A DNA stretch of 59,529 nt from Bacteroidota bacterium (GCA_023392945.1 JAEWNB010000061.1:1-59529), one strand, 5' to 3'; positions 29,113 to 47,532 are shown, counted from the stretch's first letter. Program-made: numbers and translations. Notes: generated by a model not told the origin, from the letters alone.

Positions 29113-29526
29113 TTATTGTGTGATGGCTTTTGATATTTCAGATACAATTGCTTCAAATTCTTCATTGCTAAAAGAAACTCTTTTCCCGGAAAAATTCATT
29201 TCTTCAACTTTATTTATGGGAATCAGATGAATATGAGTATGGGGCACATCCAGTCCAATAACAGCAACACCAATTCTTTTACAAGGAATAACTTTTTCTA
29301 TACCGACAGCTACTTTTTTAGCAAAAAGTGTTAATTCTGATAGCATAGCATCTTCAAGGTCAAAAATGTAGTCATTCTGAATTTTTGGTACTACCAGCGC
29401 ATGTCCTTTAGCTAAAGGTGAAATGTCTAAAAAAGATATAAAATCGTCATTCTCAGCAATTTTATAACAAGGAATTTCACCTTTGATTATTTTTGTGAAT
29501 ATTGTTTCCATTTTATCTTGATACAT
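29113..29526 (-). CDS. HIT (histidine triad) family protein
   Basis: FTKIIKGEIP start and histidine triad HTHIHLIP. Confidence 0.9.
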   Translation of the reverse strand: MYQDKMETIFTKIIKGEIPCYKIAENDDFISFLDISPLAKGHALVVPKIQNDYIFDLEDAMLSELTLFAKKVAVGIEKVIPCKRIGVAVIGLDVPHTHIHLIPINKVEEMNFSGKRVSFSNEEFEAIVSEISKAITQ

Positions 29527-29986
29527 TTAAAATCTCAAATTGTATTTTGCCTGCCGGAACATCCACCGTAATCTTATCTCCTTTTGTTTTACCTAATAAT
29601 GCACTTGCAATAGGCGATGTGACAGATATTTTGCCAAGTTTTATGTCAGCTTCAGATTCAGGAACTATAGTATAGCTCATTTCAATCTTATTAGAAATAT
29701 TTTTAATTTTAACAATAGAATAAAGCAAAATCTTAGAAGTGTCAATTTTGGTTTCATCTAAAACTCTTGCATTTGCAATTAAGTTTTTCAATTTGGATAT
29801 TTTAAGTTCAAGAAGACCTTGTGCCTCTTTAGCGGCATCATATTCTGCATTTTCCGAAAGATCACCTTTATCTCTGGCTTCAGCAATTGCTGCTGAAATT
29901 TTTGGTCTTTCAACGGATTCAAGTTCTAACAACTCTTGTCTTAAAGTTTCTAAACCTTCTTTTGAATAGTATTTAATTTTGTTCAT
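29513..29986 (-). CDS. greA: Transcription elongation factor GreA
   Basis: 157 aa. GDLSENAEYDAAKE motif. C-terminal FKBP-like domain. Confidence 0.95.
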   Translation of the reverse strand: MNKIKYYSKEGLETLRQELLELESVERPKISAAIAEARDKGDLSENAEYDAAKEAQGLLELKISKLKNLIANARVLDETKIDTSKILLYSIVKIKNISNKIEMSYTIVPESEADIKLGKISVTSPIASALLGKTKGDKITVDVPAGKIQFEILNVSR

Positions 29987-30011
29987 AATTTCTATTGTTT
30001 GAATAACAATG

Positions 30012-30036
30012 AAAATTAAAGAGGCCCAAAAGCCTC
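30012..30036 (-). terminator. Probable rho-independent terminator after the PorV-like gene
   Basis: On the minus strand: GAGGC, TTTTGG loop, GCCTC, then TTTAATTTT. Confidence 0.5.
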
Positions 30037-30070
30037 CTTAATTTATTATTTTAAAAGGATTATATGGTTT

Positions 30071-31228
30071 CTAGAGTGCTACTTTTAAACTAATATAATG
30101 GTTCCCTTTCCATTTATTTGTAAACCTATATGCATAATCTAAAATTAATTTCTGATTTCCCTTGTTCTTTTTTGCAAGAGGAATACCAAGAGAAACTCCG
30201 GCGCAAGGTCCAGCATACCATGTTGTGCTGGTTTTAGCATTCCACATACCTCCCTCAATAGTATATCCGGCGCGAATCATAAAAATATCCATAAGACTAT
30301 ATTCAATTCCCAAAGCGAATAAGTCTCTGGAGTAAGAATTTGCGGTGAAAGAACCGGCCAATGTTAATCTGTTTGTTGCATCATTTCGGGTGAGTCCCTC
30401 GTCAATTCTATCTTCTTTGCTCATAGTCTTATATTCTTTTCCCCAAAAAAGGAAGTCATAGGAAATACCGATTGTAAGTAATGATGGCATTTCGAATTGA
30501 GCAGAACGTTGTTCCAAAGTTAATTCATGATCTGTAGCGTTAACAATTCCTCTTAAAGAATAACCATCACCGGCATAACGCATAGGAAGACCTATGTTTT
30601 TCATGGTAACTCCAATTTTGAAATTTTCGTAAGGACCGGAAAGATACTGAACACCGGCATCAATTGCAAAACCTGTAGAACTAAGGTCTGCAATACTTTC
30701 ATTAATTAATTTAAATGATACACCGCCATGGATATATTTATTAAATGATTTGGCATAATGCAAGCCAATATAGAGTAGATTAGGAGAAAAATTTCCCATA
30801 TTACCTTCAGGTTGGGGTACCGTTGTAATTTCAATATCTCCAAAGCCCATTGAGAATACAGAGATGCCTAATACACCAAAATTTTTGATAATTCTTCCTG
30901 TTTCTTTATCTTTTTTGGTAAGTGATTGAGCAAGTGCAAAAGAATTAATAGAAATTCCGGAGCCAACCAAATATTGAGTTCTTGAAAATCCAAATTCAGT
31001 TTTTTTAGTAAAAGCCATTCCGGCTACATTAGAGTATATTGATTCTAATCCACGAATTTCAGCAACTCCTGCAGTTCCCCATCCATTGGATCTTGCCCAG
31101 GGGTCAATCAGTAAATGTTGTGCACCTGCTTGGCCTGAACGGTCTTTATTTCCTGCAAATACTTGAGTACTTACAGATAATATTCCCATTAAAGCGATAA
31201 TTATTAATGTTTTATATGTTTTATTCAT
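30071..31228 (-). CDS. PorV/PorQ (FadL-like) family outer-membrane beta-barrel
   Basis: Signal peptide, then GQAGAQHLLIDPWARSNGWGTAGVAE...SNVAGMAF. This resembles the conserved N-terminal motif of PorV/PorQ family barrels. Alternating beta-strand pattern throughout. Confidence 0.6.
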   Translation of the reverse strand: MNKTYKTLIIIALMGILSVSTQVFAGNKDRSGQAGAQHLLIDPWARSNGWGTAGVAEIRGLESIYSNVAGMAFTKKTEFGFSRTQYLVGSGISINSFALAQSLTKKDKETGRIIKNFGVLGISVFSMGFGDIEITTVPQPEGNMGNFSPNLLYIGLHYAKSFNKYIHGGVSFKLINESIADLSSTGFAIDAGVQYLSGPYENFKIGVTMKNIGLPMRYAGDGYSLRGIVNATDHELTLEQRSAQFEMPSLLTIGISYDFLFWGKEYKTMSKEDRIDEGLTRNDATNRLTLAGSFTANSYSRDLFALGIEYSLMDIFMIRAGYTIEGGMWNAKTSTTWYAGPCAGVSLGIPLAKKNKGNQKLILDYAYRFTNKWKGNHYISLKVAL

Positions 31229-31263
31229 AGTCGTATAATATTAAAATTCACAAATTAATAATG

Positions 31264-34200
31264 TTAAAATGCATTTAAGTCAACAGGACGCATTGCACAG
31301 AAGAATTTTAAGGTTCTTTCTCCAATGCCGGGAGCTTTTACATGGATTATGTATACACCACTTGCAATAGGAATTCCGGCATTATTTTTAAGATCCCAAT
31401 TTACATATGTAGACCCACTATCTCCTTTTGAAATAGTTTTCACCAAAAGTCCACCTACCGTAAAGATAGATATAGAACAATTCTCAGGTAAATTTACAAT
31501 TTTAATATAATTTTCCAATGCAGTCGATTCATACATTGAAAAACCATAATATGGATTTGGAACTACATTTATCTCATCAAGTATACTCTGATGTGTAGAT
31601 TCGGCATTAGTAGTTGGAGCAATATTTTTGGTTGTAAAAGTATACATTGGGAATCCATTATTTTGAGAAGCGTTTGGAGCAGTAGAAGGGTTGTCAAACC
31701 AACGGGAAGAATATCTCATATAGGGACGGGAAACACGAAGTTTGACAACAGCTTGATTTGAGAGCCAGTTATCATTTTGACCGTATGCCGGCATAGGAAT
31801 ACTGGTCCACATAACATTATTAAATAGTTGCATTTTAAACTGATGAATAATGCTATTGCCATATGAAGAATTATCCACAAACTGAGCAAACTTTGCCTTT
31901 AACCATGAACATTCATCATACGGACCACATTCATAATAAGGATAGTCTTTTCCACCAAAAGAGAATGATCCTCCTTGAAAAATTCCATTGCTTTGGAAAG
32001 TTTGATAGCTGTCATTGTAGTTACGTTTTCTGTCAAAACCTCTGGCACTGTAAAAAATAGAATTTGTATTACCGCTACTTCCACAAACATATACAAAGTG
32101 TTTTCCACCCCATACTGGTTCAGTTGTTCCGTCAAAAATACTATTATAAGTTCCTGAATTAATAGGGTAAAGTGTGTCAATGCCTTCATCTTCATTTATG
32201 TAATGAAAATATGCATAAACATCAGTAGGATTAAAGAGCATATCATTTCCATTATTTCTTGTATCAGATGAGTTTTCTGAAAACATAACATTAAGACGTT
32301 CTCCTGTTTCCACATTGATTGCGTAACCCGGGAACCAACCCATACCTTCACCTGTTCCGTCAGGATTTCCATCTTTATCAACTGAAGCATGTTTTCTTGG
32401 CTCATGTTTCAATGCACCACCTTCTGAAAGACTTTCATCATCACAAGCTTCAAGAACAATACAACGTGTCCATTTACTCTTATCGGGAGTAAAAACAATG
32501 TCAACAGAATAAATGTTGGTCATTGTCTGATTAAATCCCGGACAATAAGGAATTGCACTCAACAATGTGAAGTCGTAATAAGGTTCTTCCGGTTGTGTTC
32601 CAGGAATGGTGTCAGGTTTTATATATTTTGCCTGAGGTCCGCCATTATAAGGAGATGACAAAACATAAGGAGCCCAGGTTCCTCCAATAGCGTCTTCAAA
32701 TTGTCCTTTGGGATCTTTCCATCCTCTGGATTGCCAGCTGTCATTAAGTGTACCTGCAGCCATTAATATGAAGAAATCTTCGGTCTTCCATAGAGTATAA
32801 TCATCTCTTACTCCTTCTCCTGCATCTAATCCTTGCCATTGACCGGAGTTTTGTTGTCCTGAACGAATCCAGTTATTAGGAAAATCTCCTTCACCATCTT
32901 CAACTCCGCCCAACCATGGTTTGCTATTGTCTGCATATTCTATGCTGGAACCGATGAAATCAACTTGTGCATATTTTGAAATGTTAACATAATTTAATCC
33001 TGTGGACGTTGATTCTACCCAATCCAGTAATTCTTTTTGATGAATTTTAAATCCATAATTTTTAATAGATATAGAAATACCAAGAGGAAGAATTAATTGT
33101 TCATTAGTCATGTCAATACTCATTTTAGAATTGATTATTCTAATAGGATTGTTATCTTCATCGACTAAATTCATACTGATAAGTTCTTCGTCAGTAACAT
33201 CCAATATTTCAAGTTGCCAATTAGTAGAATCAGTAACATCTTCGGCATTTTCTAAAAATTTAATAGAATAGTCAAAAGGTTTAACTTTTAATGGATCAAT
33301 AACTTTAATACCTAGTGGACCATAATTATTTTTATATTGGATTTCATTAATAGCCCATGTGGGTTGTCCGTAATCGTCGAGCTCTCCACCGGACATGATT
33401 TTATCTCTTGATTCGTCAGTCATGTCAAGAAAATAACCTCCGTTGCCTTGTCCTTCAATTCTGGTAATCATGGGTTGTGTACCATATGCTGAATTTAGAA
33501 CAGTTCCTTCATTTTGAGGAGTAGTTTTGTGAGGTATTCCGGAATATACTTTTATATTCTTTCTACCGGCAAGAAATACTTTTTGCTGTCCTGCTAAGCC
33601 TTCAACACCATTTGTGATAGAATAAGGTGCAAATTCATTATAGGCATACGCAATAACCATATAATAGTATGTTTTATGATTTACTAATTCAGTTGCAGTT
33701 GTGGCAAATTTATCTTCGGTTAGTTTAAGTGAGTGATAAACTCCATTATTGGAACCATTTACCATTTCTGTTGCAACTGAAGTAGAAACAGCATCATTGT
33801 AAACCCAGTTAACTAATTGTCCCACACCGCTTCCGTCAGGTCTGTAATTCTCAATATCACATTGACCAACCAACTTGGCTTTATCAGGATCATCAAGATC
33901 CGTTACACTAATACTTTTACTTTTCAATTGATAAATCATATATCCTTCAAAGCGATATTTTCTGTCATTTGGAATTTTATCAATTTCAGTGACTGATCTT
34001 GTATAGGTAATGATTGTATCATGACCATCTATTGTGGCATGTATTGTATCAGTTACATTATAAGAGGTTTCAACTTCTCTGAATTCAGCAATTTGATTGT
34101 CAAATTCTTCATATTCTTCATTATAGTTATTGCTTAACTTGTCATCATTAGAGATGAAAAGGATAAGTTCGTTTTCAAGTTCGCGAATGGTAATGTCTGG

Positions 34201-35982
34201 TGCATCGGGTCCATCCAGTACTTTAAAGCAGTTTTCAAAAAGCGATTGACATTTATCGTCAGCAATTTTCAAAAGTTCAACAGATGCCCAGGCACCTCCT
34301 TGTGAAGCACGTGCCCATGGAATACCGACAGTAATGTAGTTGACAGAACCGGCTTTCAGTGTGAAAGGTCCGGCAGATTGCATAAAACGACGGTCATAGG
34401 GAGCATTTCCAACATTAGCTTCTGTCCATCCTCCGTCACCGTATTGGGATTCGTTAGGATCAACACCTGCAGTTCCCCAATTACAAGGGTCTGTTGTTCC
34501 GGGGAACATAAAATCACATTCAGGACCGGAGGCTCCGTTCGATGGATGTGCATTTGCACCATATCTCATTCGTTGATTATCTCTCCAAATACCTTGTAAC
34601 ATATTATAATAATCAATAGCTACATCCGGGTCTCCTGTAGGAGAGTTATCATTGTTGTGGTAAACAAATCTTCTCATTCCGAAACGTTCATTGTCAACAA
34701 TGCCATCTCCAAAGTTAACTCCGTTGATTGCCATTTGGTCAACACCAAATTCACTATCCAAATAACGATCACAATATCCGTTTACAATTGCAGAATCTTT
34801 GAAAAATTTAGGATTGTCTCTGCCATCATCGTCGATATAAGGTCCTTGAAAAAAGTCAACTCCAACAGCAGGTGGTTGAGAACTATATGCCCAAGTTTGA
34901 CCTGTACCGTCAACATCGTAGCCGTTGTAACAATACCCCAATCCTCTGGCTACATCACAACCGACATAGTCATCATTGGCATAACCCAAATCAGGGTCTA
35001 CCCATTGAGAGAAAAAAGTATTGGTTAATTCATAAGTGGATCTGTTGATGATTTCATAAGAATAGAAAGTCATGTTGTTTAGATCGTCATTGGTAGCAAA
35101 ACCAAATGCTTGTCCACGAATTTCAAGACCGATAGGTTCTCCTTCTGATTCGGTATGAGCACCTCCTTTATCATTGAAAATCCAATAGAGTGTCTCATCC
35201 CCTTTAAGGACGTGGTCAGCATAGATCATTCCGGTGGTTACACCGGAAGCTTCTTCAGGAGTAATCGGGAGCATTCCTGCAGCAGCTAAAGCCCTATTTG
35301 CCTCAGTCCAGGGACATAAATCATTGTCAAGGTCATAATAAGGATAATCACCCTGATCCGGATTGTATTCACCGTCTTCACCTAAATCCTTAAATGGAGC
35401 CAGATATTTGGATTGTCCTTTAGAAACATCACCATGGGCAGGCCAGTTGGTTATAATGGAAGGAGTGACATATTCAGGATCAATCAAAGTTCCGTTTTCG
35501 TCGAAAGCAGCGATATGAGCTTCTACCTGAGCACGTGTAATTTTAAAATGTTTATCATATTGACTGCAAGTTTCCTGATCTACAGATGCGCCTACAACTG
35601 TAAGTGGACCTGTCCAAAAATCATCTCCTTTTTGGCGAAAACGGACAGCAGCCAATTTTAATTGTTGATTAATATCTCTTCCTCCAATCCATAAGGCAGC
35701 GCAAAACATTGAAGTCATTCCGGAACCAACAGGCACTTCATATTCAGCAACTTCTCTAAACCACATAGTACCGTTGGTTTCCAAATATGCTCTAACATTA
35801 TTAATGGTCAGTTCATTTGAATTGGTAGCGGGAAGGCAGGAGGCATTTGCTTTTTGCTTTTTGGAAATTTGAACACTTCTTGATCTTTCTGCCATCACTG
35901 ACGAGGAAGCAAGGAGTGTGAAAATTCCAACTAAAATTAAAATTTTGTTTATATTCTTCATGTCTCTATTTATTTTTTTCAT
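31264..35982 (-). CDS. Very large (1572 aa) secreted protein with T9SS type-A C-terminal sorting domain, function unknown
   Basis: Signal peptide (ILILVGIFTLLASSSVMA). C-terminal VVPNPY...ISIFTVGGLLVKTI...WDLKNNAGIPIASGVYIIHVKA pattern of the Por secretion tail. No catalytic motif recognised in the other roughly 1450 aa. Confidence 0.8.
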   Translation of the reverse strand: MKKINRDMKNINKILILVGIFTLLASSSVMAERSRSVQISKKQKANASCLPATNSNELTINNVRAYLETNGTMWFREVAEYEVPVGSGMTSMFCAALWIGGRDINQQLKLAAVRFRQKGDDFWTGPLTVVGASVDQETCSQYDKHFKITRAQVEAHIAAFDENGTLIDPEYVTPSIITNWPAHGDVSKGQSKYLAPFKDLGEDGEYNPDQGDYPYYDLDNDLCPWTEANRALAAAGMLPITPEEASGVTTGMIYADHVLKGDETLYWIFNDKGGAHTESEGEPIGLEIRGQAFGFATNDDLNNMTFYSYEIINRSTYELTNTFFSQWVDPDLGYANDDYVGCDVARGLGYCYNGYDVDGTGQTWAYSSQPPAVGVDFFQGPYIDDDGRDNPKFFKDSAIVNGYCDRYLDSEFGVDQMAINGVNFGDGIVDNERFGMRRFVYHNNDNSPTGDPDVAIDYYNMLQGIWRDNQRMRYGANAHPSNGASGPECDFMFPGTTDPCNWGTAGVDPNESQYGDGGWTEANVGNAPYDRRFMQSAGPFTLKAGSVNYITVGIPWARASQGGAWASVELLKIADDKCQSLFENCFKVLDGPDAPDITIRELENELILFISNDDKLSNNYNEEYEEFDNQIAEFREVETSYNVTDTIHATIDGHDTIITYTRSVTEIDKIPNDRKYRFEGYMIYQLKSKSISVTDLDDPDKAKLVGQCDIENYRPDGSGVGQLVNWVYNDAVSTSVATEMVNGSNNGVYHSLKLTEDKFATTATELVNHKTYYYMVIAYAYNEFAPYSITNGVEGLAGQQKVFLAGRKNIKVYSGIPHKTTPQNEGTVLNSAYGTQPMITRIEGQGNGGYFLDMTDESRDKIMSGGELDDYGQPTWAINEIQYKNNYGPLGIKVIDPLKVKPFDYSIKFLENAEDVTDSTNWQLEILDVTDEELISMNLVDEDNNPIRIINSKMSIDMTNEQLILPLGISISIKNYGFKIHQKELLDWVESTSTGLNYVNISKYAQVDFIGSSIEYADNSKPWLGGVEDGEGDFPNNWIRSGQQNSGQWQGLDAGEGVRDDYTLWKTEDFFILMAAGTLNDSWQSRGWKDPKGQFEDAIGGTWAPYVLSSPYNGGPQAKYIKPDTIPGTQPEEPYYDFTLLSAIPYCPGFNQTMTNIYSVDIVFTPDKSKWTRCIVLEACDDESLSEGGALKHEPRKHASVDKDGNPDGTGEGMGWFPGYAINVETGERLNVMFSENSSDTRNNGNDMLFNPTDVYAYFHYINEDEGIDTLYPINSGTYNSIFDGTTEPVWGGKHFVYVCGSSGNTNSIFYSARGFDRKRNYNDSYQTFQSNGIFQGGSFSFGGKDYPYYECGPYDECSWLKAKFAQFVDNSSYGNSIIHQFKMQLFNNVMWTSIPMPAYGQNDNWLSNQAVVKLRVSRPYMRYSSRWFDNPSTAPNASQNNGFPMYTFTTKNIAPTTNAESTHQSILDEINVVPNPYYGFSMYESTALENYIKIVNLPENCSISIFTVGGLLVKTISKGDSGSTYVNWDLKNNAGIPIASGVYIIHVKAPGIGERTLKFFCAMRPVDLNAF

Positions 35983-35997
35983 TATTACTTCATTATA

Positions 35998-38900
35998 TTA
36001 AAAACCAAATTGAAGTCCTAAACTAACCCGTGCAGGTGTGCTGTAGTTATAAGGATTTTGCATTATCATATTGTAATAGTTAATGTAGGAAGGCACATAT
36101 ATCTGTGAATTAATTTGTTGTTGATACTCAGTAGCTGAAAGGTATCCATCATCATCAGGATTTCCTGTGTATGTATATACAGATATAATGTTTTTAAAAT
36201 TAAAAATATTAGTAATATCTAAATAGACAAGCAGATAAGCATTTTTAGAATTTCTTTGTTTTCCTTCTTTGTCTTTAGAATTTAAATTAAACATAAAAGT
36301 TTTATCAATACGTATGTCGCATTGGAAAGTCCATGGTTTATGAGAACCATTTATAGATCCTGAAAGTTGAGAAGCAGTTCCTGTAACATAGGTTGAGTAA
36401 GGTGTACTTGAGCGACTGTATGGGAGACCTGAAGCTGCGGATAATAAAAGAGTTATTCCGGTATTTTCAAGCCATCTGATTTCTTTAACTTTATTAGTCC
36501 CCTTTTTAGAATATTGAGTTTTGGGACCGTTATAGTCGGCACCTCCCTCAAAACGGTAGTCAAGGTTGGCACTAATACGATGTCTTTGGTCAAAAGAAAG
36601 ATTATTTAATGTTCTTAAATTAGGTTGACCGGAAGCAATGATGGCGAGGTTTGAAGAAGCCGAGGATCCGGTTCCTTTTGCAAATTGCAAAGTATAACCT
36701 GCACGAAGGGAAACATTTTTTATTCTTCTCAAATCATAGCTTAAAGAGAAGCCCTGAACTGTTCCAAAGTCAAGATTAGCATATGAGTAATAAGTACTTG
36801 GATATGAACCGGAATAACGGTATGCCTGAATCTGATCACGTTTTTCAGAATAATAAGCAGTAATTCCAATAGCCGATTTATCACTTACTTTTTGAGTAAA
36901 ACTAACCTCATAGTCAATACTTTTTTGAGGTTTAAGGTTAGGATTGTTAACGATATTATTTGCATTAGTCCCGAATTTTTCTATAAATAGATAATCGATA
37001 GGACTTAATTGCAAGTTAGTAGGACGGGAAGTGATAATGTTATAGTGAGCAGTAAATACTGAGTTATCTGATACAGGAAATGAAAATGAAACACGTGGCA
37101 TGATAGACCATTGTGGTTTATAATCTTCAAAAGCACTTGGGTCAACTTTTGAAATTGCGCTCTGTTCAAGAGCATCTACTAGGATTGGACCACCATTAGC
37201 ACCCAACATGTTTTCAGGATCGACTATTTCTTGGCCCTGACTATCATACCAAGTATTTCCGTTTCGATAACCGATAATAGTAGTATTGTCTAAATCAAGT
37301 GTACCATCTTTTTGGTTTACATAAACTACCCAGTCGTCTCCTGCGTTATTAGTAAAATATTGATTCTTCGAATAGCCTTTGCCAATTAAATCCCCAACAG
37401 TGTAAGCTGCACGGAATAAGTAAGGGTCAGACAATACAGATTGATTTGCATCGAAACGGTCAATACGTACACCAATATTGAACAATAAACTCTGAATAGA
37501 GAATTTGTCCTGTAAGTATAAAGCCATATAAATAGGCTCATAAGCTCCAATATTGTAAGTCTTATTACCATTTTCATCTGTAGAGTTGAAAAAGTCGTAA
37601 ATCGTAGTTTTTTTATTGTATTTTTGAGTTCCTGTATAATCATAACCATAATAATTTACCAAAGAACTGCTGAGTCCAACCAATAATTCTTCGGCTGAGA
37701 ACATGCTTAAATCATAAGTTTCAGGAGAAAGATTATCAATGTCAATCCAGTCGCTGCCATTAGGATCCAATCCCAGTGAAGTACGCAAATTTCTATCGAA
37801 GGAAGTTTGCTCATCCAAATTGATTAAATTATTGTAATCAACAGTATCTCCATGAATGATCGGATTGTCAACATCAAGTTCATTGATATGGAAGTTGGCT
37901 TTTTGTCTCATCATTGTCCAAAGTGGTGTTGGATTAACTGAGAAACCACGACTTGTAAGCTTTTCAAATTCATAACCTAATTTAAATTCATGATCTTTTA
38001 GATTAACAGATAAACTTGCTTTTGCTCCTAAAGAAGTTAATTCGGATTTGCTATAACCATCGGTAATTGCACCGGGCATATAAAATAGGCTATAAACACG
38101 GTCAGGCTGGTCTCCGTTTCTCAAAGCTCCGAATTGAGAATATAAAGTCAAGTTATAAGGTACTGTATATCCGTAATAGTCATTAATTATTTCAGGAGTG
38201 AACTGATCAACAAAATTCTGAGTATAGTAAATTAAGTCCGGATTAGAGCTTCCAGTTGCATCAAAAGTAACTAACGAATCATAGATGTTAGTTAATACAT
38301 TCATACCAATATAGTCAATAGAATCGATTTGAATATCCTGTAATTCATAAAATTTAGCTTTTGTAGTTTTAAAATATCCAATATGACCATAATTAAACAA
38401 GTTATCTTTATGTCTTGCATCCTGAGTTAATGAATTAAACTTAGTATAATTAATGTTAATATCATACATGATATTTTTAAAGATTGCGGTATCACTTGGA
38501 TTGGTATAAACTCTATGATTGATTCTGGCATTCAATCGCATGGTAGAGTTTTGTGATTCAGAGTTGTTTTGTGCATTAAATAGTGCAGTTGATCTACCCC
38601 AGTTTTTAGCTTTTAAGAATTCATAAGACCCCCCCACGGATATTTTTACATTATGAGTTTTTCCTGTAAGAAAATCAAGTTTCCCCTGCAAAAGATAATT
38701 CCAGTAACCGGCATGATCTCTTACTCTTCTATTATAGAAAGCATCACTTTCAAGGTAACTGGCGCTTTGATACCATACGCCAAAAGCAATTGGGTCATAA
38801 CGAAGCGGGGTTTTAATCAAATAGTCAATGGTTTCATCGGTAGCACGCCAAGTTCCACCTTGTGCAGGTGAGTTATCGATATCATAAGAAATTTCACCTG

Positions 38901-39717
38901 TAAGTAAAAATCCAATTCTGGCAGGATCCTCGCGTTTTTTTCCTTTGAGGAGAGGCCCTGAAAGAGAAAGAGCTCCAAGGAAATTTCCATAGCCTTCAAG
39001 AGAGCCCCTTATTTCAGCAGCTCCGTGAAAATCTTTGGAAATACCTTTTGTTGTAATCACGGTAAAACTGGTTCCATCACCATATTCAGCAGGAATACCT
39101 CCCTGAATTAATTCGGCTTCTTCAATTGATTGCATGGAAACTCCACCATTACCTCTGACACGCACACCATCAATAATTGTTTGTTGTCCATCGGGACGAT
39201 TTCCGCGGACACTGGCAATGGCTCCATCTTGCATGGTAACACCTTCTACACTGGCAAGTGCAGCAGTAATGGAACGACCGGGGGTTCTTCGTAAGTCCTC
39301 ACCGGTAATAGTCACAGATTTTTTAGTTTCATCTTGATCAAAAACGGGCTTTTCCCATTTAATTTCCACTGCAGCAAGTTCTTGACCACAATTGATGGTC
39401 GCATGTTCCCACATTACAACATCAGGGGAGATGGAAATACCTGTTTTTTTGTATGTGTTTGAACAACCAAGAGGTCCGGTAATTTCAAGATCATATTTTC
39501 CGGCAGAAATACCGAACAGTTGGTATTCTCCCTTTTCATTAGTCATAGCATAATTCACAACTTTATCATCCTGTTTCAAATATACATTTGCATAGGCCAA
39601 GGCCGACTTAGTTTGATCTTTAACAGTTCCTTTTAAAGTACTTTGTTGTGAGTACGCAATTTCGCTGCAAAGGAAGATGATCCCAAGAGCAAATAGTAAC
39701 TTTTTAATCATAGCCAT
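35998..39717 (-). CDS. TonB-dependent-receptor-like outer-membrane barrel with N-terminal CarboxypepD_reg domain (1239 aa), no SusD partner
   Basis: Signal peptide. STLKGTVKD...YANVYL...GEYQL...GKYDLEI (CarboxypepD_reg-like), plug-like segment (ITGEDLRRTPGRSITAALASVEGV...VRGNR), long beta-strand region, terminal aromatic (LQFGF). Confidence 0.78.
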   Translation of the reverse strand: MAMIKKLLFALGIIFLCSEIAYSQQSTLKGTVKDQTKSALAYANVYLKQDDKVVNYAMTNEKGEYQLFGISAGKYDLEITGPLGCSNTYKKTGISISPDVVMWEHATINCGQELAAVEIKWEKPVFDQDETKKSVTITGEDLRRTPGRSITAALASVEGVTMQDGAIASVRGNRPDGQQTIIDGVRVRGNGGVSMQSIEEAELIQGGIPAEYGDGTSFTVITTKGISKDFHGAAEIRGSLEGYGNFLGALSLSGPLLKGKKREDPARIGFLLTGEISYDIDNSPAQGGTWRATDETIDYLIKTPLRYDPIAFGVWYQSASYLESDAFYNRRVRDHAGYWNYLLQGKLDFLTGKTHNVKISVGGSYEFLKAKNWGRSTALFNAQNNSESQNSTMRLNARINHRVYTNPSDTAIFKNIMYDININYTKFNSLTQDARHKDNLFNYGHIGYFKTTKAKFYELQDIQIDSIDYIGMNVLTNIYDSLVTFDATGSSNPDLIYYTQNFVDQFTPEIINDYYGYTVPYNLTLYSQFGALRNGDQPDRVYSLFYMPGAITDGYSKSELTSLGAKASLSVNLKDHEFKLGYEFEKLTSRGFSVNPTPLWTMMRQKANFHINELDVDNPIIHGDTVDYNNLINLDEQTSFDRNLRTSLGLDPNGSDWIDIDNLSPETYDLSMFSAEELLVGLSSSLVNYYGYDYTGTQKYNKKTTIYDFFNSTDENGNKTYNIGAYEPIYMALYLQDKFSIQSLLFNIGVRIDRFDANQSVLSDPYLFRAAYTVGDLIGKGYSKNQYFTNNAGDDWVVYVNQKDGTLDLDNTTIIGYRNGNTWYDSQGQEIVDPENMLGANGGPILVDALEQSAISKVDPSAFEDYKPQWSIMPRVSFSFPVSDNSVFTAHYNIITSRPTNLQLSPIDYLFIEKFGTNANNIVNNPNLKPQKSIDYEVSFTQKVSDKSAIGITAYYSEKRDQIQAYRYSGSYPSTYYSYANLDFGTVQGFSLSYDLRRIKNVSLRAGYTLQFAKGTGSSASSNLAIIASGQPNLRTLNNLSFDQRHRISANLDYRFEGGADYNGPKTQYSKKGTNKVKEIRWLENTGITLLLSAASGLPYSRSSTPYSTYVTGTASQLSGSINGSHKPWTFQCDIRIDKTFMFNLNSKDKEGKQRNSKNAYLLVYLDITNIFNFKNIISVYTYTGNPDDDGYLSATEYQQQINSQIYVPSYINYYNMIMQNPYNYSTPARVSLGLQFGF

Positions 39718-39741
39718 TTATTTATATTAAACATTATTATT

Positions 39742-39792
39742 TTGTCAGAAAATTCTGGGCGGTAAATTTATAAAAATAATTTGTTCTGACAA
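39742..39792. repeat. Perfect 9-bp inverted repeat TTGTCAGAA / TTCTGACAA separated by 33 bp, in the gap before the barrel gene
   Basis: Read directly. The arms are at 39742-39750 and 39784-39792. Confidence 0.8.
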
Positions 39793-39830
39793 TTTATTTT
39801 TTTTTGAAAGCCCAATATTTTTATAATATC

Positions 39831-40235
39831 TTAATAATTAGGTCTTTTTAAAATCTCGCCATATATGATTCCATTTATAATTTCACCACTTTCAAGGGTT
39901 AACATAGGAAAAGATTCGTCTTCATTATCAACAGTTTGAGTTTTTGCTTTTACAAAAGAATCATCATTATTGTAATATTCTGATTCAATTTTATTAGTTT
40001 CTTCATAAGTGAAATAATTCTCTTTTTTGGAAGAATTTATTCCAATTTCTTCCATTGAGGTGTTCAAAACAGTTCTTTTTTTTTCAAATTTTGGTTCAAA
40101 AGGTATGTCGACGGATTCTGGTGTGTTTGGTATTTCAATTGGCTCAGAATTGTTGCTTTTTTCTTTCTTTTTATAATTGAAAAACAAGTAGGCAACAACA
40201 ACAATAATTGAAATAACTATATCAATGGTATCCAT
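39831..40235 (-). CDS. Hypothetical small membrane-anchored protein
   Basis: N-terminal TM helix (IVISIIVVVAYLFF), acidic/Asn-rich middle. Has its own TAnnTTTG box upstream. Same strand as the barrel gene. Confidence 0.45.
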   Translation of the reverse strand: MDTIDIVISIIVVVAYLFFNYKKKEKSNNSEPIEIPNTPESVDIPFEPKFEKKRTVLNTSMEEIGINSSKKENYFTYEETNKIESEYYNNDDSFVKAKTQTVDNEDESFPMLTLESGEIINGIIYGEILKRPNY

Positions 40236-40252
40236 CCTATTTTTTTTAAATG

Positions 40253-40260
40253 CAAATATA
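40253..40260 (-). promoter_or_regulatory. -7 box TATATTTG (minus strand) upstream of the small TM gene heading the barrel/cargo/PorV-like string
   Basis: The plus strand reads CAAATATA, 18 nt upstream of ATG 40235. Confidence 0.45.
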
Positions 40261-40268
40261 CAATATTT

Positions 40269-40276
40269 TATATTTG
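40269..40276 (+). promoter_or_regulatory. -7 box TATATTTG upstream of Rieske-like lipoprotein gene
   Basis: TAnnTTTG match 22 nt upstream of ATG 40298. Confidence 0.45.
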
Positions 40277-40297
40277 CTTCGTTATATTCTTTTACCG

Positions 40298-40714
40298 ATG
40301 AAAAAAATATTTTTTATATTATTCTGTTGTTGGTGCTTAATTGGTTGTAATGGTTATGAGCACGAGACCATTCCTAATGTTCAAGTAGATTTTACTATAT
40401 ATCCAAATGATGTTGCATACTATAGTTTAAATCATTATGGGGGGCATATGTATTTTACCGGTGGAGTGAGGGGAATAGTAGTTTATAGGCTTGATCCATA
40501 TACTTTTATGGCTTATGATCGTGCATGCCCTTACGACTGGGAAGATAACGATTCCTGGATTTGGGTAGAGGAAAGTGGTATTACACTTATTGACAGTTGT
40601 TGTGGATCCAGATTTAATATATTGGATGGCTCTGTTGTTAATGGTCCTGCAATCTATTCGTTAAAGCATTACAGAACAACCTTTGATGGAGTAAAACTTC
40701 GTGTCTATAACTGA
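40298..40714 (+). CDS. Lipoprotein with degenerate Rieske-like domain (cluster ligand histidines absent)
   Basis: Lipobox CLIGC. RACPYDW and DSCCGSRFNILDGSVVNGPA resemble Rieske boxes CxH and CxCHGSxF, but both His are missing. Confidence 0.5.
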   Translation: MKKIFFILFCCWCLIGCNGYEHETIPNVQVDFTIYPNDVAYYSLNHYGGHMYFTGGVRGIVVYRLDPYTFMAYDRACPYDWEDNDSWIWVEESGITLIDSCCGSRFNILDGSVVNGPAIYSLKHYRTTFDGVKLRVYN

Positions 40715-41517
40715 TGCATCATTTCATATACTAGTTGTACCATTTTGGGACCTGCTGCAGCGGCTTCCTTCAGCACTTCTTCATGAGAGGCCTTTTCAAC
40801 CTTTCCAATAATTCCCAAATCTGTTATTACAGATAATGCAAATACTTCCATCCCCCTGTGTTTGGCAGCAATTGTCTCCGGAACAGTTGACATTCCGACA
40901 GCATCGGCTCCCATATAATGAAACATCCTATATTCTGCAGGGGTTTCAAAACAAGGACCGGTTACGCCCATATAAACACCCTGTTGAAGGTGAATGTTGA
41001 TTTTTTTTCCTGTTTCCAAAGCAATCTTAATCAGTTTCTTAGAATAAGCCTCGCTCATATCGGGAAAGCGGGGACCTTCCTTGTCTTCGTTTGGTCCAAG
41101 TAGAGGATTGTTTCCGAAAAAATTAATATGGTCATTTATTATCATAATATCTCCAATTTTAAATGTGGGATTCATCCCACCCGCAGCATTTGATAATATT
41201 ATTTTTTCTATTCCAAGCTCTTTAAGAATCTGAATAGGAAGAGTAACTTCTTGCATTGAATATCCTTCATAATAATGAAACCTGCCATTCAGAACAATAA
41301 CGTCTACATTGTTTAATTTTCCAAAAATCCAGGTTCCTTTATGTCCTTTAACCGTCGAAACAATAAAATCGGGAATTTCTCGGTATGTGATTTCAATTCT
41401 TTCTTTTATTTTATCAACAAGGCCTCCTAAACCTGACCCTAAAATTATTGCAATTTTAGGGTGATTTGTCATCTTTTCTTTTAAATACTTAACAGTTTTA
41501 TCGATGTTCCTTTTCAT
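40705..41517 (-). CDS. Purine nucleoside phosphorylase (trimeric PunA/PNP type), paralog 1
   Basis: GSGLGGL, GHKGTWIFG, RFHYYEG, SNAAGG, MSTVPE motifs. Confidence 0.9.
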   Translation of the reverse strand: MKRNIDKTVKYLKEKMTNHPKIAIILGSGLGGLVDKIKERIEITYREIPDFIVSTVKGHKGTWIFGKLNNVDVIVLNGRFHYYEGYSMQEVTLPIQILKELGIEKIILSNAAGGMNPTFKIGDIMIINDHINFFGNNPLLGPNEDKEGPRFPDMSEAYSKKLIKIALETGKKINIHLQQGVYMGVTGPCFETPAEYRMFHYMGADAVGMSTVPETIAAKHRGMEVFALSVITDLGIIGKVEKASHEEVLKEAAAAGPKMVQLVYEMMHQL

Positions 41518-41573
41518 ATTATATTATATAGTATATTTTTTTTGTTTGCATAATGACTACATAAACCCAATTG

Positions 41574-42389
41574 CTATGAAATCAAAGGCATCATTTCATA
41601 AATTAGTTTCACCATTTTAGGTCCTGCAATTTCAGCTTCTTTAAGAACCTCTTCTAAAGATACTTTTTCAATTTTTCCGGTAATACCCAAATCAGTTATA
41701 ACAGATAAAGCGAAAACTTTTATATTTCTGTGACGTGCTATTATGGTTTCAGGCACAGTTGACATTCCGACAGCATCAGCACCTAAATAATGAAACATCC
41801 TATATTCTGCCGGAGTTTCAAAGCAGGGACCACTTAATCCCAAATAGACACCCTGTTGAAGATGAATATCTATTTTTTTTGCACAAGATAAAGCAACATT
41901 GATTAATTCTTTTGAATATGCTTCGCTCATATCAGGGAAGCGGGGACCTAAATTGTCATCATTTGGTCCTATCAAAGGATTGGTCCCGAAAAAATTAATA
42001 TGATCGGTAATAATCATGATATCACCAATTTTGAATGCCGGATTCATTCCACCTGCCGCATTTGATAAAATGAGTTTTTCTATTCCAATTTCTTTCATGA
42101 TTTGGATAGGCATTGTTACTTCATTTAAAGTGTAACCCTCGTAATAGTGAAACCTTCCATTGAGGACCACAACATCAACCCCGTTAAATTTTCCAAAAAT
42201 CCAGGTCCCTTTATGACCGCTAACAGTGGAAACAGGGAAATTTGGAATATCTTGATAAGGTATTTCAAGTTCTACTTGTAACTTTTCAACAAGCCCACCC
42301 AGACCTGTTCCCAAAATAATGCCTATTTTGGGTTTTGAAAACATTTTGTCTCTTAGATAATTAATTGACGATTGAATTGGATCTAACAT
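41574..42389 (-). CDS. Purine nucleoside phosphorylase (trimeric PunA/PNP type), paralog 2
   Basis: Same motif set as paralog 1, and by eye a clear majority of residues are identical. Start chosen at MLDPIQSS by alignment with the paralog, which overlaps the lpxK end. Confidence 0.87.
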   Translation of the reverse strand: MLDPIQSSINYLRDKMFSKPKIGIILGTGLGGLVEKLQVELEIPYQDIPNFPVSTVSGHKGTWIFGKFNGVDVVVLNGRFHYYEGYTLNEVTMPIQIMKEIGIEKLILSNAAGGMNPAFKIGDIMIITDHINFFGTNPLIGPNDDNLGPRFPDMSEAYSKELINVALSCAKKIDIHLQQGVYLGLSGPCFETPAEYRMFHYLGADAVGMSTVPETIIARHRNIKVFALSVITDLGITGKIEKVSLEEVLKEAEIAGPKMVKLIYEMMPLIS

Positions 42390-43434
42390 ATTGCTGGATA
42401 ATATCATTAAAAATTTTATCTTCTTCAAAAAGAAATTTAACTTCTATAGGGATAGTAAAAACCGGCATAGAATTAATTTCATCTAATAAGGTTTTACTCC
42501 TAAATCGCATCATATCTTTTTCTGTCGTAAAAACAACAGTGTTTGATTTTAGTTCATCCGAAATCATTTTTTTGATAATAATCATATCTTTTTTAGTAAA
42601 GAAATGATGGTCATGAAATTTTAAATGCAATACTTTTTTATATTGCTTTGAAAGTCTTTCATATAATGGTTTTGGGTTAGCTATTCCGGTAACTAATAGA
42701 ATGGTTGTTTCGGAATAAAGAGCAATTTGTTTAGCGGGAATAGTTTGAGGCTCCGGATTGCCATATATATAGGTTGTAAAAAACAATCTTTGTCTTGGGC
42801 AAAGTGCTATTTTTTCACAAAAAACATCCTTTTCCAATTGGGTAATACTATCAGGGGTTTTAGAAACTATTATGATGTTAGCAATATTTGCTGCGTTGCG
42901 AAATTCTCTTAAATTCCCCGCCGGAATAGGATAATCATTAAAAAAGGGTTTTTCATATTCAGTTAGTAATATCTTTAGTCCAGCGTTGACTTGAATATGT
43001 TGATAGGCATCATCCAATAAAATTAATTGCAAAGATGGAAATTTGGTAGTGAGATTGATAATTCCTATTTTTCTTTTTTCTGCAACTGCTACTTTGATAT
43101 TAGGATATTTGACATGATATTGCATGGGCTCATCTCCGATTAGTAAAGCATCGGTATTGCTTATCTCTGTATCATTTAAAAGAATATATCCTTTAGAGAT
43201 ACGTCCGTAACCTCTGCTCAAAGTTGCAATTTCCCATTCCGGAAACAATAATCTTATTAAATATTCTGTATGGGGGGTCTTTCCGGCCCCTCCCAAGCAC
43301 AAGTTCCCAATAGCAATTGTGGGTAGTTTGGGATCAAACGGTTTTACAATTTTGTGATGGTATAACAAACGTCTTATCCAAAGAAAAAATCCGTAAATCA
43401 AAGAAAAAGGGAGAAGAATTAATCTGATTTTCAT
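42361..43434 (-). CDS. lpxK: Tetraacyldisaccharide 4'-kinase
   Basis: N-terminal membrane helix and P-loop GNLCLGGAGKTP, characteristic of LpxK. Confidence 0.9.
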   Translation of the reverse strand: MKIRLILLPFSLIYGFFLWIRRLLYHHKIVKPFDPKLPTIAIGNLCLGGAGKTPHTEYLIRLLFPEWEIATLSRGYGRISKGYILLNDTEISNTDALLIGDEPMQYHVKYPNIKVAVAEKRKIGIINLTTKFPSLQLILLDDAYQHIQVNAGLKILLTEYEKPFFNDYPIPAGNLREFRNAANIANIIIVSKTPDSITQLEKDVFCEKIALCPRQRLFFTTYIYGNPEPQTIPAKQIALYSETTILLVTGIANPKPLYERLSKQYKKVLHLKFHDHHFFTKKDMIIIKKMISDELKSNTVVFTTEKDMMRFRSKTLLDEINSMPVFTIPIEVKFLFEEDKIFNDIIQQYVRSNSIVN

Positions 43435-44420: not shown

Positions 44421-45338
44421 TTAATTTACTACTATGTAATCGCTTGGATTAACCGGAAACCCGTTGTACCAAAGTTCAAAATGAAGAAAAACCTCTTTTG
44501 ACCTATTTCCACTATTTCCCATTCTGGCAATAGGTTCTCCGGCCAACACTTTATAGCCTTCTTCTTTAAGCAAAATTTCTGTGTGTTTATAAACAGAAAT
44601 AAGATTTCCACTATGTTGAATTATGATAGTATTTCCATCTTTCGGATCATAGCCCGAATATATGACAATCCCATCTGCAACACTTGTTATCAAGGTATTG
44701 CGAATATTTTTAATATCAATGCCATAACGATTTTCGGCAGGATTATATTCGGCAAGAATAACTCCAATTGTTGGGGGCAGTAATAAGAGCGTATTTATAT
44801 TAGCTCTTTTGCTTAAAGGAGTTGAAGCAGTTGCACTATTTTTGAGGCTTTTCTTTTCTTTCATGATCAAATCAGCTTCTTCAAGTATTGCAGCATTAGC
44901 TTCATCAATTTTTTTTCTTTCACTTTCTGAGATTTCTTTTGGAGAATAGCTCTTTGCTTGGGTATTCTCCATATCTTCAGTAGTAGTTATTTTATCATTG
45001 ATTATTCTGTAAAAATTATCAATATACTGTTGATTTTGATTTAGCATTAATTCCACAGAATCAATGCTGATTGCCATTTTCTTAATGTTTCTGTAGTCTT
45101 CAGGGTTTGTATATCCGGGAACATAAACACGAAGAGGAGTAAAGGCAATTAGGAGAGCAGTAAGAATAATAAGCAGAACAGAAGAGGTAGTGACCACTAC
45201 AAAAACATTTCTTGGACTTAACAGAAATGATATCTTATCTGCATGAGAATCATCATTTCTAATAATCAGGCGATATTTAGTTTTCCAGTTGATTCTGAGC
45301 CGGCTCCAATAATATTTTATTTTTTTAAATTTTATCAT
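44421..45338 (-). CDS. Degenerate M23/LytM-domain protein (predicted non-catalytic)
   Basis: TM anchor, coiled region and C-terminal LytM fold. The HxxxD box reads RYGID and the HxH box reads FLHFE, so two metal-ligand His are lost. Confidence 0.72.
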   Translation of the reverse strand: MIKFKKIKYYWSRLRINWKTKYRLIIRNDDSHADKISFLLSPRNVFVVVTTSSVLLIILTALLIAFTPLRVYVPGYTNPEDYRNIKKMAISIDSVELMLNQNQQYIDNFYRIINDKITTTEDMENTQAKSYSPKEISESERKKIDEANAAILEEADLIMKEKKSLKNSATASTPLSKRANINTLLLLPPTIGVILAEYNPAENRYGIDIKNIRNTLITSVADGIVIYSGYDPKDGNTIIIQHSGNLISVYKHTEILLKEEGYKVLAGEPIARMGNSGNRSKEVFLHFELWYNGFPVNPSDYIVVN

Positions 45339-45355
45339 ATCATTTCAGGTAATTA

Positions 45356-46321
45356 TTAGGATAAAGCCTGATTTACTTCTTTAGATGATTTGAGAATAGC
45401 ATCGTATTCTGCCGGTGTGATGTCATTGAAGAAATAGTGAACCGGATTTACATAAGAACCATTTTTTATGATTTCATAATGAAGATGAGGTCCTAATGAA
45501 AGACCTGTGTTGCCAACATATCCGATAACTTGTCCTCGTTTTACTTTTTGTCCGGCTTTTACAGCTTTTTTTGACAAGTGTGCATATACTGATTTATAGG
45601 AATATCCATGATTAATTATTACAACAATACCATAACCTGAGCCACCCGTTTCTCCGGAGACATAGCCATCGGCAGTTGCATATACCGGAGTTCCCCTGGG
45701 AGCCGTTATGTCTATACCTGTGTGAGGTCTTAATGTTTTCAGAATAGGATGATATCGTCTTCCAAATCCTGAAGAAATTGAGTACATGTTTTTAAGGGGT
45801 CTTATTGCAGGAATTGATGCGAGCATTTCAGTTTTTTTTGTCGCCAGTATAGAAATAGTATCATAAGAACGTGATTGTGAAGCCATCTGAACAGTAAGCT
45901 TGTCCATTTTTACTTTTATTTCATTTAGCAACTCATAGGCTTCATCGTGTGAAAGACGGTCATATTTTGTGCTTTCCAGCATAGTGGGATTCCTTTGTTC
46001 TAACGGAAGTGGATCGGTTTCAAAAATGGATCGGTAAACATTGTCATCCCTTTCTTGTAAGTCTTTCATTACAAATTCAAAAATATCTACTTTTTTATTG
46101 ATTTTTTTTAGCTCAGCCTTGAGTTCATTATTCTCTCTTTGAAGCATTTTTTCTTTTGGAGAATCAATAAGATAAAATGAAATCCATAAAACAATTACAG
46201 AAAAGGAAAGAGCGGTTGCAAAAAACCATAATAACCTCTTAATGATATCTTTCAGAGTGAGTTTTTCTTTTTCAAAAGATAGTGTATTTGGGTTAAAATA
46301 ATAAAATGTTTTTTTGGACAT
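45356..46321 (-). CDS. M23 family metallopeptidase (intact active site)
   Basis: TM anchor, coiled coil. HTGIDI (HxxxD) and PHLHYEI (HxH) motifs are intact. Confidence 0.85.
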   Translation of the reverse strand: MSKKTFYYFNPNTLSFEKEKLTLKDIIKRLLWFFATALSFSVIVLWISFYLIDSPKEKMLQRENNELKAELKKINKKVDIFEFVMKDLQERDDNVYRSIFETDPLPLEQRNPTMLESTKYDRLSHDEAYELLNEIKVKMDKLTVQMASQSRSYDTISILATKKTEMLASIPAIRPLKNMYSISSGFGRRYHPILKTLRPHTGIDITAPRGTPVYATADGYVSGETGGSGYGIVVIINHGYSYKSVYAHLSKKAVKAGQKVKRGQVIGYVGNTGLSLGPHLHYEIIKNGSYVNPVHYFFNDITPAEYDAILKSSKEVNQALS

Positions 46322-47528: not shown

Positions 47529-47532
47529 AGTA

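Follow-up and report, generated by a model that had tools for sequence, protein, structure and literature searches.

Four genes of a Bacteroidota outer-membrane locus

We analysed a stretch of 59,529 nucleotides (nt) from a Bacteroidota bacterium (GCA_023392945.1 JAEWNB010000061.1:1-59529; hereafter the window), in which the region from 30071 to 40235 holds four genes, all on the minus strand (Table 1). The last three form a tightly packed trio that encodes an outer-membrane barrel of the TonB-dependent transporter type, a giant secreted protein of 1572 amino acids (aa) with a C-terminal domain (CTD) related to type IX secretion system (T9SS) CTDs, plus a second barrel of the PorV/PorQ family. 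Judged by sequence comparison, the trio is a real, very widely conserved and uncharacterised outer-membrane gene set of Bacteroidia. An initial annotation of the window had reported four co-directional open reading frames (ORFs) in this region, encoding proteins of 134, 1239, 1572 and 385 aa, and their coordinates were reproduced exactly by ORF calling. The gaps of 15 and 35 nt that it gave between the last three genes, as annotated, also measured as claimed. Met8 of the 1572-aa protein is invariant in the alignment of close homologues and the homologues all start there, so that the giant gene probably begins at 35961, which would place it 36 nt after the barrel gene.

Table 1 Features of the four-gene region (coordinates refer to the whole window)
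Feature	Coordinates	Strand	Basis and remarks
Bacteroidetes-type -7 box TATATTTG	40253..40260	-	Read directly; 17 nt before the small-gene ATG at 40235
Small bitopic membrane protein, 134 aa	39831..40235	-	ORF; N-terminal transmembrane helix, low-complexity linker, conserved C-terminal motif ...IIYGEILKRPNY; predicted N-out/C-in
Perfect inverted repeat, 9 bp, TTGTCAGAA ... TTCTGACAA	39742..39792	-	Read directly; brackets the box TAAATTTACC
Promoter-like box TAAATTTACC	39761..39770	-	53 nt upstream of the barrel-gene start codon; family consensus TAnnTTTAC[C/G]
TonB-dependent-transporter-like outer-membrane protein, 1239 aa	35998..39717	-	Signal peptide, CarboxypepD_reg N-terminal extension, plug, large barrel; ends ...GLQFGF
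TonB-box-like segment ELAAVEIKWEKPVF, residues 113-126 (putative)	39340..39381	-	Just before the plug; alignment of 72 orthologues
Secreted giant protein, 1572 aa	31264..35982	-	Probable start Met8 at 35961; ~1,450 aa without recognisable domain, then T9SS-type CTD and conserved tail
T9SS C-terminal domain, ~residues 1470-1562 (predicted)	31297..31575	-	Ig-like beta-sandwich; Foldseek and NCBIfam; closest to PorZ and PorU CTDs
10-residue tail AMRPVDLNAF	31267..31296	-	Beyond the CTD; family consensus xMRPxDLxxF
PorV/PorQ-family outer-membrane barrel, 385 aa	30071..31228	-	NF033709 PorV_fam; neither PorV nor PorQ equivalog
Intrinsic-terminator-like hairpin (14 pairs) and T-run	30013..30044	-	Read after the last gene; terminator scan

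The giant protein combines an unfamiliar body with a PorZ/PorU-like C-terminal domain

The sole Pfam or NCBIfam match on the full sequence of the 1572-aa protein was FlgD_ig at its C-terminus, below cutoff, and single-sequence searches of all three trio proteins against the PDB gave no match, while a profile search with the giant protein retrieved from the PDB the CTDs of PorZ and PorU only. The modelled C-terminal region gave the same picture in Foldseek, with the CTDs of PorZ (5m11, E=8e-6, 24% identity) and PorU (6za2, E=4e-3) as the top matches, followed by substrate CTDs in SprA-PorV complexes (8glk_D, 8gl8_D) and by FlgD. When the isolated C-terminal 118 residues were run against NCBIfam, the PorZ model NF052228 aligned in its CTD region only (E=1.5e-9; 36.9 bits vs a cutoff of 260) and the PorU model NF033707 at positions 994-1076 of 1095 only (E=2.8e-4; 18.6 bits vs a cutoff of 420). 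From sequence and modelled structure we interpret the C-terminal domain of the giant protein as a T9SS CTD that is closest to those of PorZ and PorU, the two CTDs that are uncleaved and stay bound to PorQ and PorV (PMC10202324). The initial annotation had assigned a type-A T9SS sorting domain; the fold was confirmed by Foldseek, whereas the generic sorting-domain model TIGR04183 stayed below its cutoff in the window protein and was passed by the syntenic orthologue in locus L010 (31.8 bits). Many homologues of the giant protein are named by NCBI as T9SS type A CTD proteins. That the giant protein is not PorU, as the initial annotation had argued, agrees with the absence of any Peptidase_C25 match by Pfam at E<=0.1 and with the restriction of the PorU and PorZ models to the CTD.

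Beyond this domain lies the short tail AMRPVDLNAF, which had been singled out as an unusual extra element and which proved to be real and conserved family-wide as RPxDLxxF. Within it, conservation reaches at least 90% for R1565, D1568 and L1569 in a diverse alignment, F1572 is invariant among close homologues, and the tail is kept in the syntenic, tandem and lone copies of the giant protein that were examined. It was modelled as a short helix with a low predicted local distance difference test score (pLDDT) in the AlphaFold2 model of residues 800-1572.

The ~1,450 residues in front of the CTD gave no recognisable domain in the databases searched. At the N-terminus, where the initial annotation had proposed a signal peptide, one of the Sec type can be recognised by inspection when the protein is read from Met8 (MKNINKILILVGIFTLLASSSVMA/ER). 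Two overlapping AlphaFold2 models built on a 72-sequence alignment were both confident and mostly beta, with a pLDDT of 90.4 and a predicted template modelling score (pTM) of 0.85 for residues 40-905 and a pLDDT of 88.5 and a pTM of 0.85 for residues 800-1572. Foldseek searches of the first model against the PDB gave weak matches only, to beta-sandwich parts of glycoside hydrolases and phosphorylases (best E=1.7e-4, TM-score ~0.2), and at this TM-score we did not accept homology to these enzymes; the matches of the second model were confined to its last ~100-130 residues, that is, to the CTD. Pfam, NCBIfam, PDB and Foldseek searches were thus all without a convincing match outside the CTD, in line with the earlier claim that the ~1450 aa hold no recognisable catalytic or repeat motif, and in the models compared with the PDB the fold of the body has no recognisable relative.

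The two barrels encoded on either side of the giant gene

For the 1239-aa protein the initial annotation had proposed a layout of CarboxypepD_reg extension, plug and barrel, and all three domains were found by Pfam above their gathering scores: CarboxypepD_reg (PF13620) at residues 27-88, Plug (PF07715) at 128-216 with 35.3 bits vs a cutoff of 23.9, and TonB_dep_Rec_b-barrel (PF00593) at 522-1076 with 51.3 bits vs a cutoff of 27, the last match identifying the domain family and not the number of strands. A profile of 18 orthologues searched against the PDB matched the plugs of Cir (1.3e-12) and PfeA (7e-6) and, from a SusC homologue and one other TonB-dependent receptor, the domains of the N-terminal extension. 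Just before the plug, most orthologues share a segment with the consensus LExVEVVDYKVPLI, represented in the window by ELAAVEIKWEKPVF, which from its position and pattern is a putative TonB box. The domain layout and the missing SusD partner described in the initial annotation were both confirmed; the protein is not itself a member of SusC/RagA. The SusC/RagA model of NCBIfam did not match the 1239-aa protein at E<=0.1, and Pfam found no member of the SusD family in the two genes downstream of the barrel gene; a SusC/SusD pair was rejected on these two grounds.

The 385-aa product of the last gene passes the family model NF033709 (PorV_fam) in an end-to-end alignment with 125.6 bits vs a cutoff of 90, and a profile of 20 orthologues found the solved PorV of F. 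johnsoniae (6h3i_F, E=2.3e-15) as its sole significant match in the PDB, with the FadL-type TodX next at 0.04. Its earlier assignment to the PorV/PorQ family is thereby supported. None of the more specific models was passed, neither that for PorV (NF033710, 51 bits vs a cutoff of 250) nor those for PorQ (NF033711, 59.3 vs 220) and PorV2 (NF052325, 39 vs 325). The initial annotation had further seen in this protein a PorV paralogue dedicated to one cargo; the paralogy within PorV_fam stands, and the single cargo does not. In some genomes there is a further copy of the giant gene, or one that stands alone, with the same tail; the barrel would be dedicated to a family of cargo proteins instead of a single one. 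We also considered subunits of the Bacteroidota BAM complexes, which include the FadL-like BamG with BamH (PMC12578637, PMC12611786), and rejected them because the barrel belongs to PorV_fam, TodX appears at E=0.04 only, and these complexes are without T9SS cargo.

The trio is conserved in order and spacing across Bacteroidia

The size of the giant-protein family was determined by an exhaustive HMMER search with residues 1-1200 against clusters at 50% identity, which returned 6,914 clusters at E<=1e-3; with the stricter limit of E<=1e-30 there were 1,929. Lengths were mostly 1,300-1,570 residues. Between close homologues from different genera, full-length identity is ~60%, and among the 360 homologues listed, the sources were metagenome-assembled genomes or metagenomes only. 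A locus scan with one genome per species yielded at least 592 loci, of which the best 80 were used for taxonomic labels and 81 for synteny. The labels of the best 80 were Bacteroidota except for two loci, and include Bacteroidales, Lentimicrobiaceae, Flavobacteriales and a bin labelled Chitinophaga. One of the two exceptions, L081, is a 4.4-kb contig binned as Oscillospiraceae that is probably a case of mis-binning rather than evidence for the family outside Bacteroidota; the other, L020, is labelled only 'uncultured bacterium'.

Of the 81 Bacteroidia loci, 75 have the three genes side by side and colinear, in the order barrel, giant protein, PorV-like barrel. The median gaps are 35 and 37 nt, the arrangement is kept down to 38% identity, and the same order also occurs in a Flavobacteriales genome assembly and on a metagenome contig of 4.96 Mb. 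Homologues of the three genes are hence syntenic in other genomes, as the initial annotation's proposal presupposed, and its genetic tie between the PorV-like and the TonB-type barrel is borne out; its mention of similar trios, annotated as hypothetical, across the FCB group was confirmed for the Bacteroidia only. The three proteins diverge in step (r=0.88-0.92), as common descent by itself would lead one to expect, and this carries little weight. An extra giant copy stands in tandem after greA in L010 (8004-12182). In the same locus the syntenic copy is split into ORFs of 316 and 1096 aa by a frameshift or an assembly error, and in L076 the gene after a giant copy that stands alone encodes a 665-aa protein passing TIGR04183.

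The conservation extends beyond the trio. A greA gene follows the PorV-like gene within 300 nt in 70 of the 75 trio loci, across orders, and the next gene is usually of the HIT family (29113-29986, minus strand, in the window). So stable a linkage was unexpected, as it places a transcription factor gene beside an outer-membrane operon. A published characterisation of the module was not found in the searchable literature on PorV2, PorV-like proteins, PorQ, PorF/PG0534 and combined T9SS and TonB topics, our coverage of which was partial.

A small membrane protein and promoter-like boxes precede the trio

The 134-aa protein encoded by the first gene has no Pfam or NCBIfam family match, and tblastn searches with it against related loci missed its orthologues, which were recovered instead by position and motif. 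From these sequences, the small upstream gene represents a conserved unannotated family: at least 45 distinct loci (for example L013, 3688-4170, and L048, 3650-4138) have a member of 100-190 aa directly in front of the barrel gene. These proteins combine a transmembrane helix at the N-terminus with a charged linker that varies and, at the C-terminus, a motif close to FDLRKAVIYSEILxRPY. In 42 of 45 sequences the charge is about -1 ahead of the helix and about +4 behind it, and by the positive-inside rule this distribution predicts that linker and motif are cytoplasmic. With such a topology, the small protein could not directly reach the outer-membrane proteins. It is linked to the trio by position, and its role may be regulatory. 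Where this family is absent, the nearest small gene upstream belongs to a second conserved class, whose products of 85-115 aa are extremely rich in Lys/Arg after a signal peptide (L084, 5735-6055; L087, 5468-5815; and the upstream ORFs of L035, L050, L052, L053, L056, L065, L071, L072 and L082). In a further seven loci (L020, L027, L031, L034, L040, L045 and L074), the nearest ORF upstream of the barrel gene encodes ~248 aa starting MIRCVIVEDEE... or MLKAIIIDDEK..., which by eye resembles a response-regulator receiver domain.

The TAnnTTTG box described in the initial annotation upstream of the first gene is present, and the exact motif is indeed absent from the 113-nt gap before the barrel gene; what had been missed there is a conserved variant box. 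Sequences of the consensus TAnnTTTAC[C/G] occur in 25 of 29 long intergenic regions of orthologous loci (shuffled sequences would lead one to expect 1.3), at 46-60 nt before the barrel start codon and at 38 nt in one locus. The gaps that bear this box include those of L005, L013, L014, L018-L038 and others. Compared with the usual Bacteroidetes TAnnTTTG, its last base differs and C/G-rich bases then follow; either a variant -7 box or a site for a special sigma factor or regulator is conceivable. Because the box is conserved upstream of the barrel gene in orthologous loci, this gene probably has its own promoter, and since such a box is found in many lineages, the transcription layout is probably that of one small gene plus a three-gene operon. 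In lineages with a gap of 13-60 nt between the small gene and the barrel gene, all four genes may be co-transcribed. The inverted repeat around the box of the window may be an operator or form a hairpin; its conservation was not evident in the intergenic regions of the other loci. Downstream of the last gene, the hairpin and T-run reported before were found again, and they are the one exception in sigma-70 and terminator scans that otherwise stayed within shuffled expectation.

Genomic neighbourhood

In the window, the first gene beyond the PorV-like gene is greA, followed by genes for a HIT protein, a transketolase subunit and LptF/G, and the upstream neighbours are two PNP genes and genes for LpxK, PhoH, M23 peptidases and Ddl. 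Three consecutive tandem paralogue pairs stand out on the minus strand upstream of the module, encoding PNP_UDP_1 phosphorylases (40705-42428), M23 peptidases (44421-46321) and Glucosaminidase-plus-LysM proteins (46326-48528), the last two pairs forming a cell-wall hydrolase cluster that adjoins ddl. Beside the small gene lies a divergent ORF without family match (40250-40714, plus strand); translated from the ATG at 40298 it starts MKKIFFILFCCWCLIGC..., which resembles a lipoprotein signal, in which case the divergent promoter region would be 62 nt long. About 10 kb from the module, the window encodes a protein with a TonB C-terminal domain (19134-19820, plus strand), a gene that is unlinked to the barrel gene, and a DUF7935 protein (19874-20389, minus strand). 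No core T9SS gene is among the annotated ORFs of this single 59.5-kb window, which is not a whole genome, and an Rfam search of positions 29900-40500 gave no match.

A candidate surface complex and its alternatives

The analysis shows which domains are present, that the CTD resembles those of PorZ and PorU, and that the tail as well as gene order and spacing are conserved; we infer that the three proteins associate physically. By analogy with known systems, the three packed genes may encode one outer-membrane complex conserved across Bacteroidia, in which a T9SS-delivered and CTD-anchored capture subunit serves a TonB-type importer, a tentative reading that we place somewhat short of an even chance. 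The giant protein would be synthesised with its Sec signal peptide and then cross the outer membrane via the T9SS using its CTD. This domain would not be cut off and would be kept, as in the PorZ-PorQ and PorU-PorV pairs, and together with the RPxDLxxF tail it would dock the giant protein non-covalently on the dedicated PorV/PorQ-family barrel encoded downstream. The extracellular body of ~1,450 residues would thereby be placed over or beside the TonB-type barrel encoded upstream, where it could act as a capture or lid subunit, the role that is taken by SusD, RagB or BtuG lipoproteins elsewhere in Bacteroidota. Captured substrate would then be imported through the plug-gated barrel with energy from TonB, both the TonB dependence and the direction of transport being presumed.

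As the best-supported mechanism we propose, by analogy, a union of two known principles, that of a cognate PorV-like barrel holding a CTD protein and that of a TonB-dependent barrel with an extracellular partner from a neighbouring gene. The module probably encodes a surface machine of a new kind. It is possible, and we hold this with less conviction than the complex as such, that it represents a third, undescribed Bacteroidota outer-membrane transport architecture, with a TonB-powered barrel and a T9SS-delivered giant subunit of new fold that is permanently held by its uncleaved CTD and tail on a private PorV/PorQ paralogue. Each genome across Bacteroidia would then carry a single conserved core copy of it, and the smaller triplets of substrate-specific loci may have it as their prototype. 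What is undescribed in the module is the combination of the parts and the fold of the giant protein; the parts themselves belong to known kinds.

Several observations weigh against the complex proposed here. The giant body is far larger than known transporter lids and has no detectable binding or catalytic fold. An identity of ~60% over 1,570 residues and the fixed greA/HIT neighbourhood suit a core envelope machine no less than a nutrient importer, and one TonB-receptor-like barrel, PG0534, is known as a component of the T9SS rather than as an importer (PMC5445135). The Por_Secre_tail model TIGR04183 gave 19.6 bits vs a cutoff of 23 on the isolated CTD of the window protein and no match on the full protein. 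Furthermore, lone giant copies without adjacent barrels occur in L067 (7845-11870), L076 (8007-12029) and L085 (10001-14209). The initial annotation had left two functional readings side by side, a cargo-specific export and anchoring device and a TonB-powered machine for capture and import, and both still fit.

The main rival is an envelope-biogenesis or T9SS-accessory complex instead of an importer, that is, a second unit resembling the attachment complex, in which a PorZ-like, CTD-retaining protein on a PorQ-like barrel would work together with a PorF/PG0534-like barrel in the handling of surface glycolipid, lipopolysaccharide (LPS) or other cargo. We judge it unlikely, if a serious contender. 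It draws on the similarity of the CTD, which is closest to that of PorZ, and on the 385-aa protein, for which the PorQ model gives a slightly better score than the PorV model (59 vs 51 bits); yet the PorZ and PorQ equivalogs both fail widely (36.9 vs 260 bits and 59 vs 220 bits), and no homology to PorZ extends beyond the CTD. The weak Foldseek matches of the N-terminal part to beta-sandwich domains of carbohydrate enzymes would suit such a role, but at a TM-score of ~0.2 they are unconvincing. An accessory function is also in keeping with the requirement for the TonB-receptor-like PG0534 in the T9SS function of P. gingivalis (PMC5445135), and with the very high conservation and the housekeeping context of the locus, where greA, LptF/G and LpxK are nearby.

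Alternatively, the giant protein could be an ordinary T9SS cargo such as an adhesin or enzyme, whose CTD would be removed by PorU before the protein is anchored to A-LPS or released, with flanking barrels that are separate in function or a PorV-like barrel that is an export shuttle only. The passing of TIGR04183 by the L010 orthologue and the lone giant copies without barrels speak for this view, which appears improbable to us because of the conserved tail and the synteny: a family-wide tail beyond the CTD would be pointless if the CTD were discarded, and the genes are adjacent with gaps of ~35 nt in 75 of 81 loci across orders. In addition, the CTD resembles the generic model less than it does the retained CTDs of PorZ and PorU, and ~60% full-length identity is unusual for adhesins. 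That this is simply the ordinary porU-porV locus of the genome, as a large CTD protein directly before a PorV-family barrel and the weak match to the PorU sortase model might suggest, is scarcely credible and was excluded, since there is no C25 domain, the PorU model aligns on the CTD region only, the equivalog models for PorU, PorV, PorQ and PorZ all fail, and the N-terminal 1,450 residues are without a PDB match though PorU is in the PDB.

Relation to known systems

With the PorZ-PorQ and PorU-PorV pairs of the P. gingivalis attachment complex, the module shares a large surface protein with a type A-like CTD that is adjacent to, or partnered with, a PorV/PorQ-family barrel. Unlike these pairs, it is without a C25 peptidase or a PorZ-type (beta-propeller) body, with all four equivalog models failing, and it adds the RPxDLxxF tail after the CTD and a TonB-type barrel in the same operon. 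A second likeness is to SusC/SusD, RagAB and BtuB-BtuG, where, as here, the gene for a large TonB-dependent barrel that carries a CarboxypepD_reg extension and a plug lies beside that of a presumed extracellular partner; in the module this partner is a T9SS-type protein of ~1,570 residues and not a lipoprotein, and the third gene encodes a PorV-like anchor barrel.

The arrangement also resembles that of SprB and SprF, in which a cognate PorV-like barrel holds the CTD protein on the surface (PMC10202324). As in these PorP/SprF systems, which serve type B CTDs, the barrel is encoded beside its surface cargo, whereas the CTD of the module is type A and PorZ-like, its barrel belongs to PorV_fam and not to PorP/SprF, and a TonB-type barrel is added. 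PG0534 (PorF) is similar in being a TonB-receptor-type barrel that is functionally tied to the T9SS (PMC5445135), and differs in size, the measure used for this comparison in place of sequence, with 92 kDa vs roughly 140 kDa for the barrel of the module.

The closest parallels in gene order come from published maps, by which, and not by sequences, they were compared. The map of the R. marinus alginate utilisation locus shows a TonB-dependent receptor, a T9SS type A protein and a PorV/PorQ family protein in the same order, a triplet that was not studied there (PMC9530828), and T9SS and porV/Q genes are present in Porphyromonas hmu-type loci, again not studied as a triplet (PMC12106395). Gene order and annotation classes are identical to those of the module; the T9SS proteins of these loci fall far short of the giant protein in size (2,181 nt in R. 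marinus) and stand in substrate-specific loci. By analogy, the recurrence of such triplets in the same order suggests a recurring uptake design.

Implications

If the trio forms one complex, TonB-dependent uptake and type IX secretion, two hallmarks of Bacteroidota, would be joined in one machine. Docking through a retained CTD, known only for PorU-PorV and PorZ-PorQ, would then extend to a working surface complex, and a family that ranks among the largest unannotated ones of the phylum, with its 6,914 clusters and no Pfam domain, would gain a function. The conserved tail and the dedicated barrel offer a testable handle on how T9SS cargo escapes CTD cleavage. Carriers of the module span rumen, gut, freshwater and soil Bacteroidia, so that the substrate or process it serves is likely of general physiological importance.

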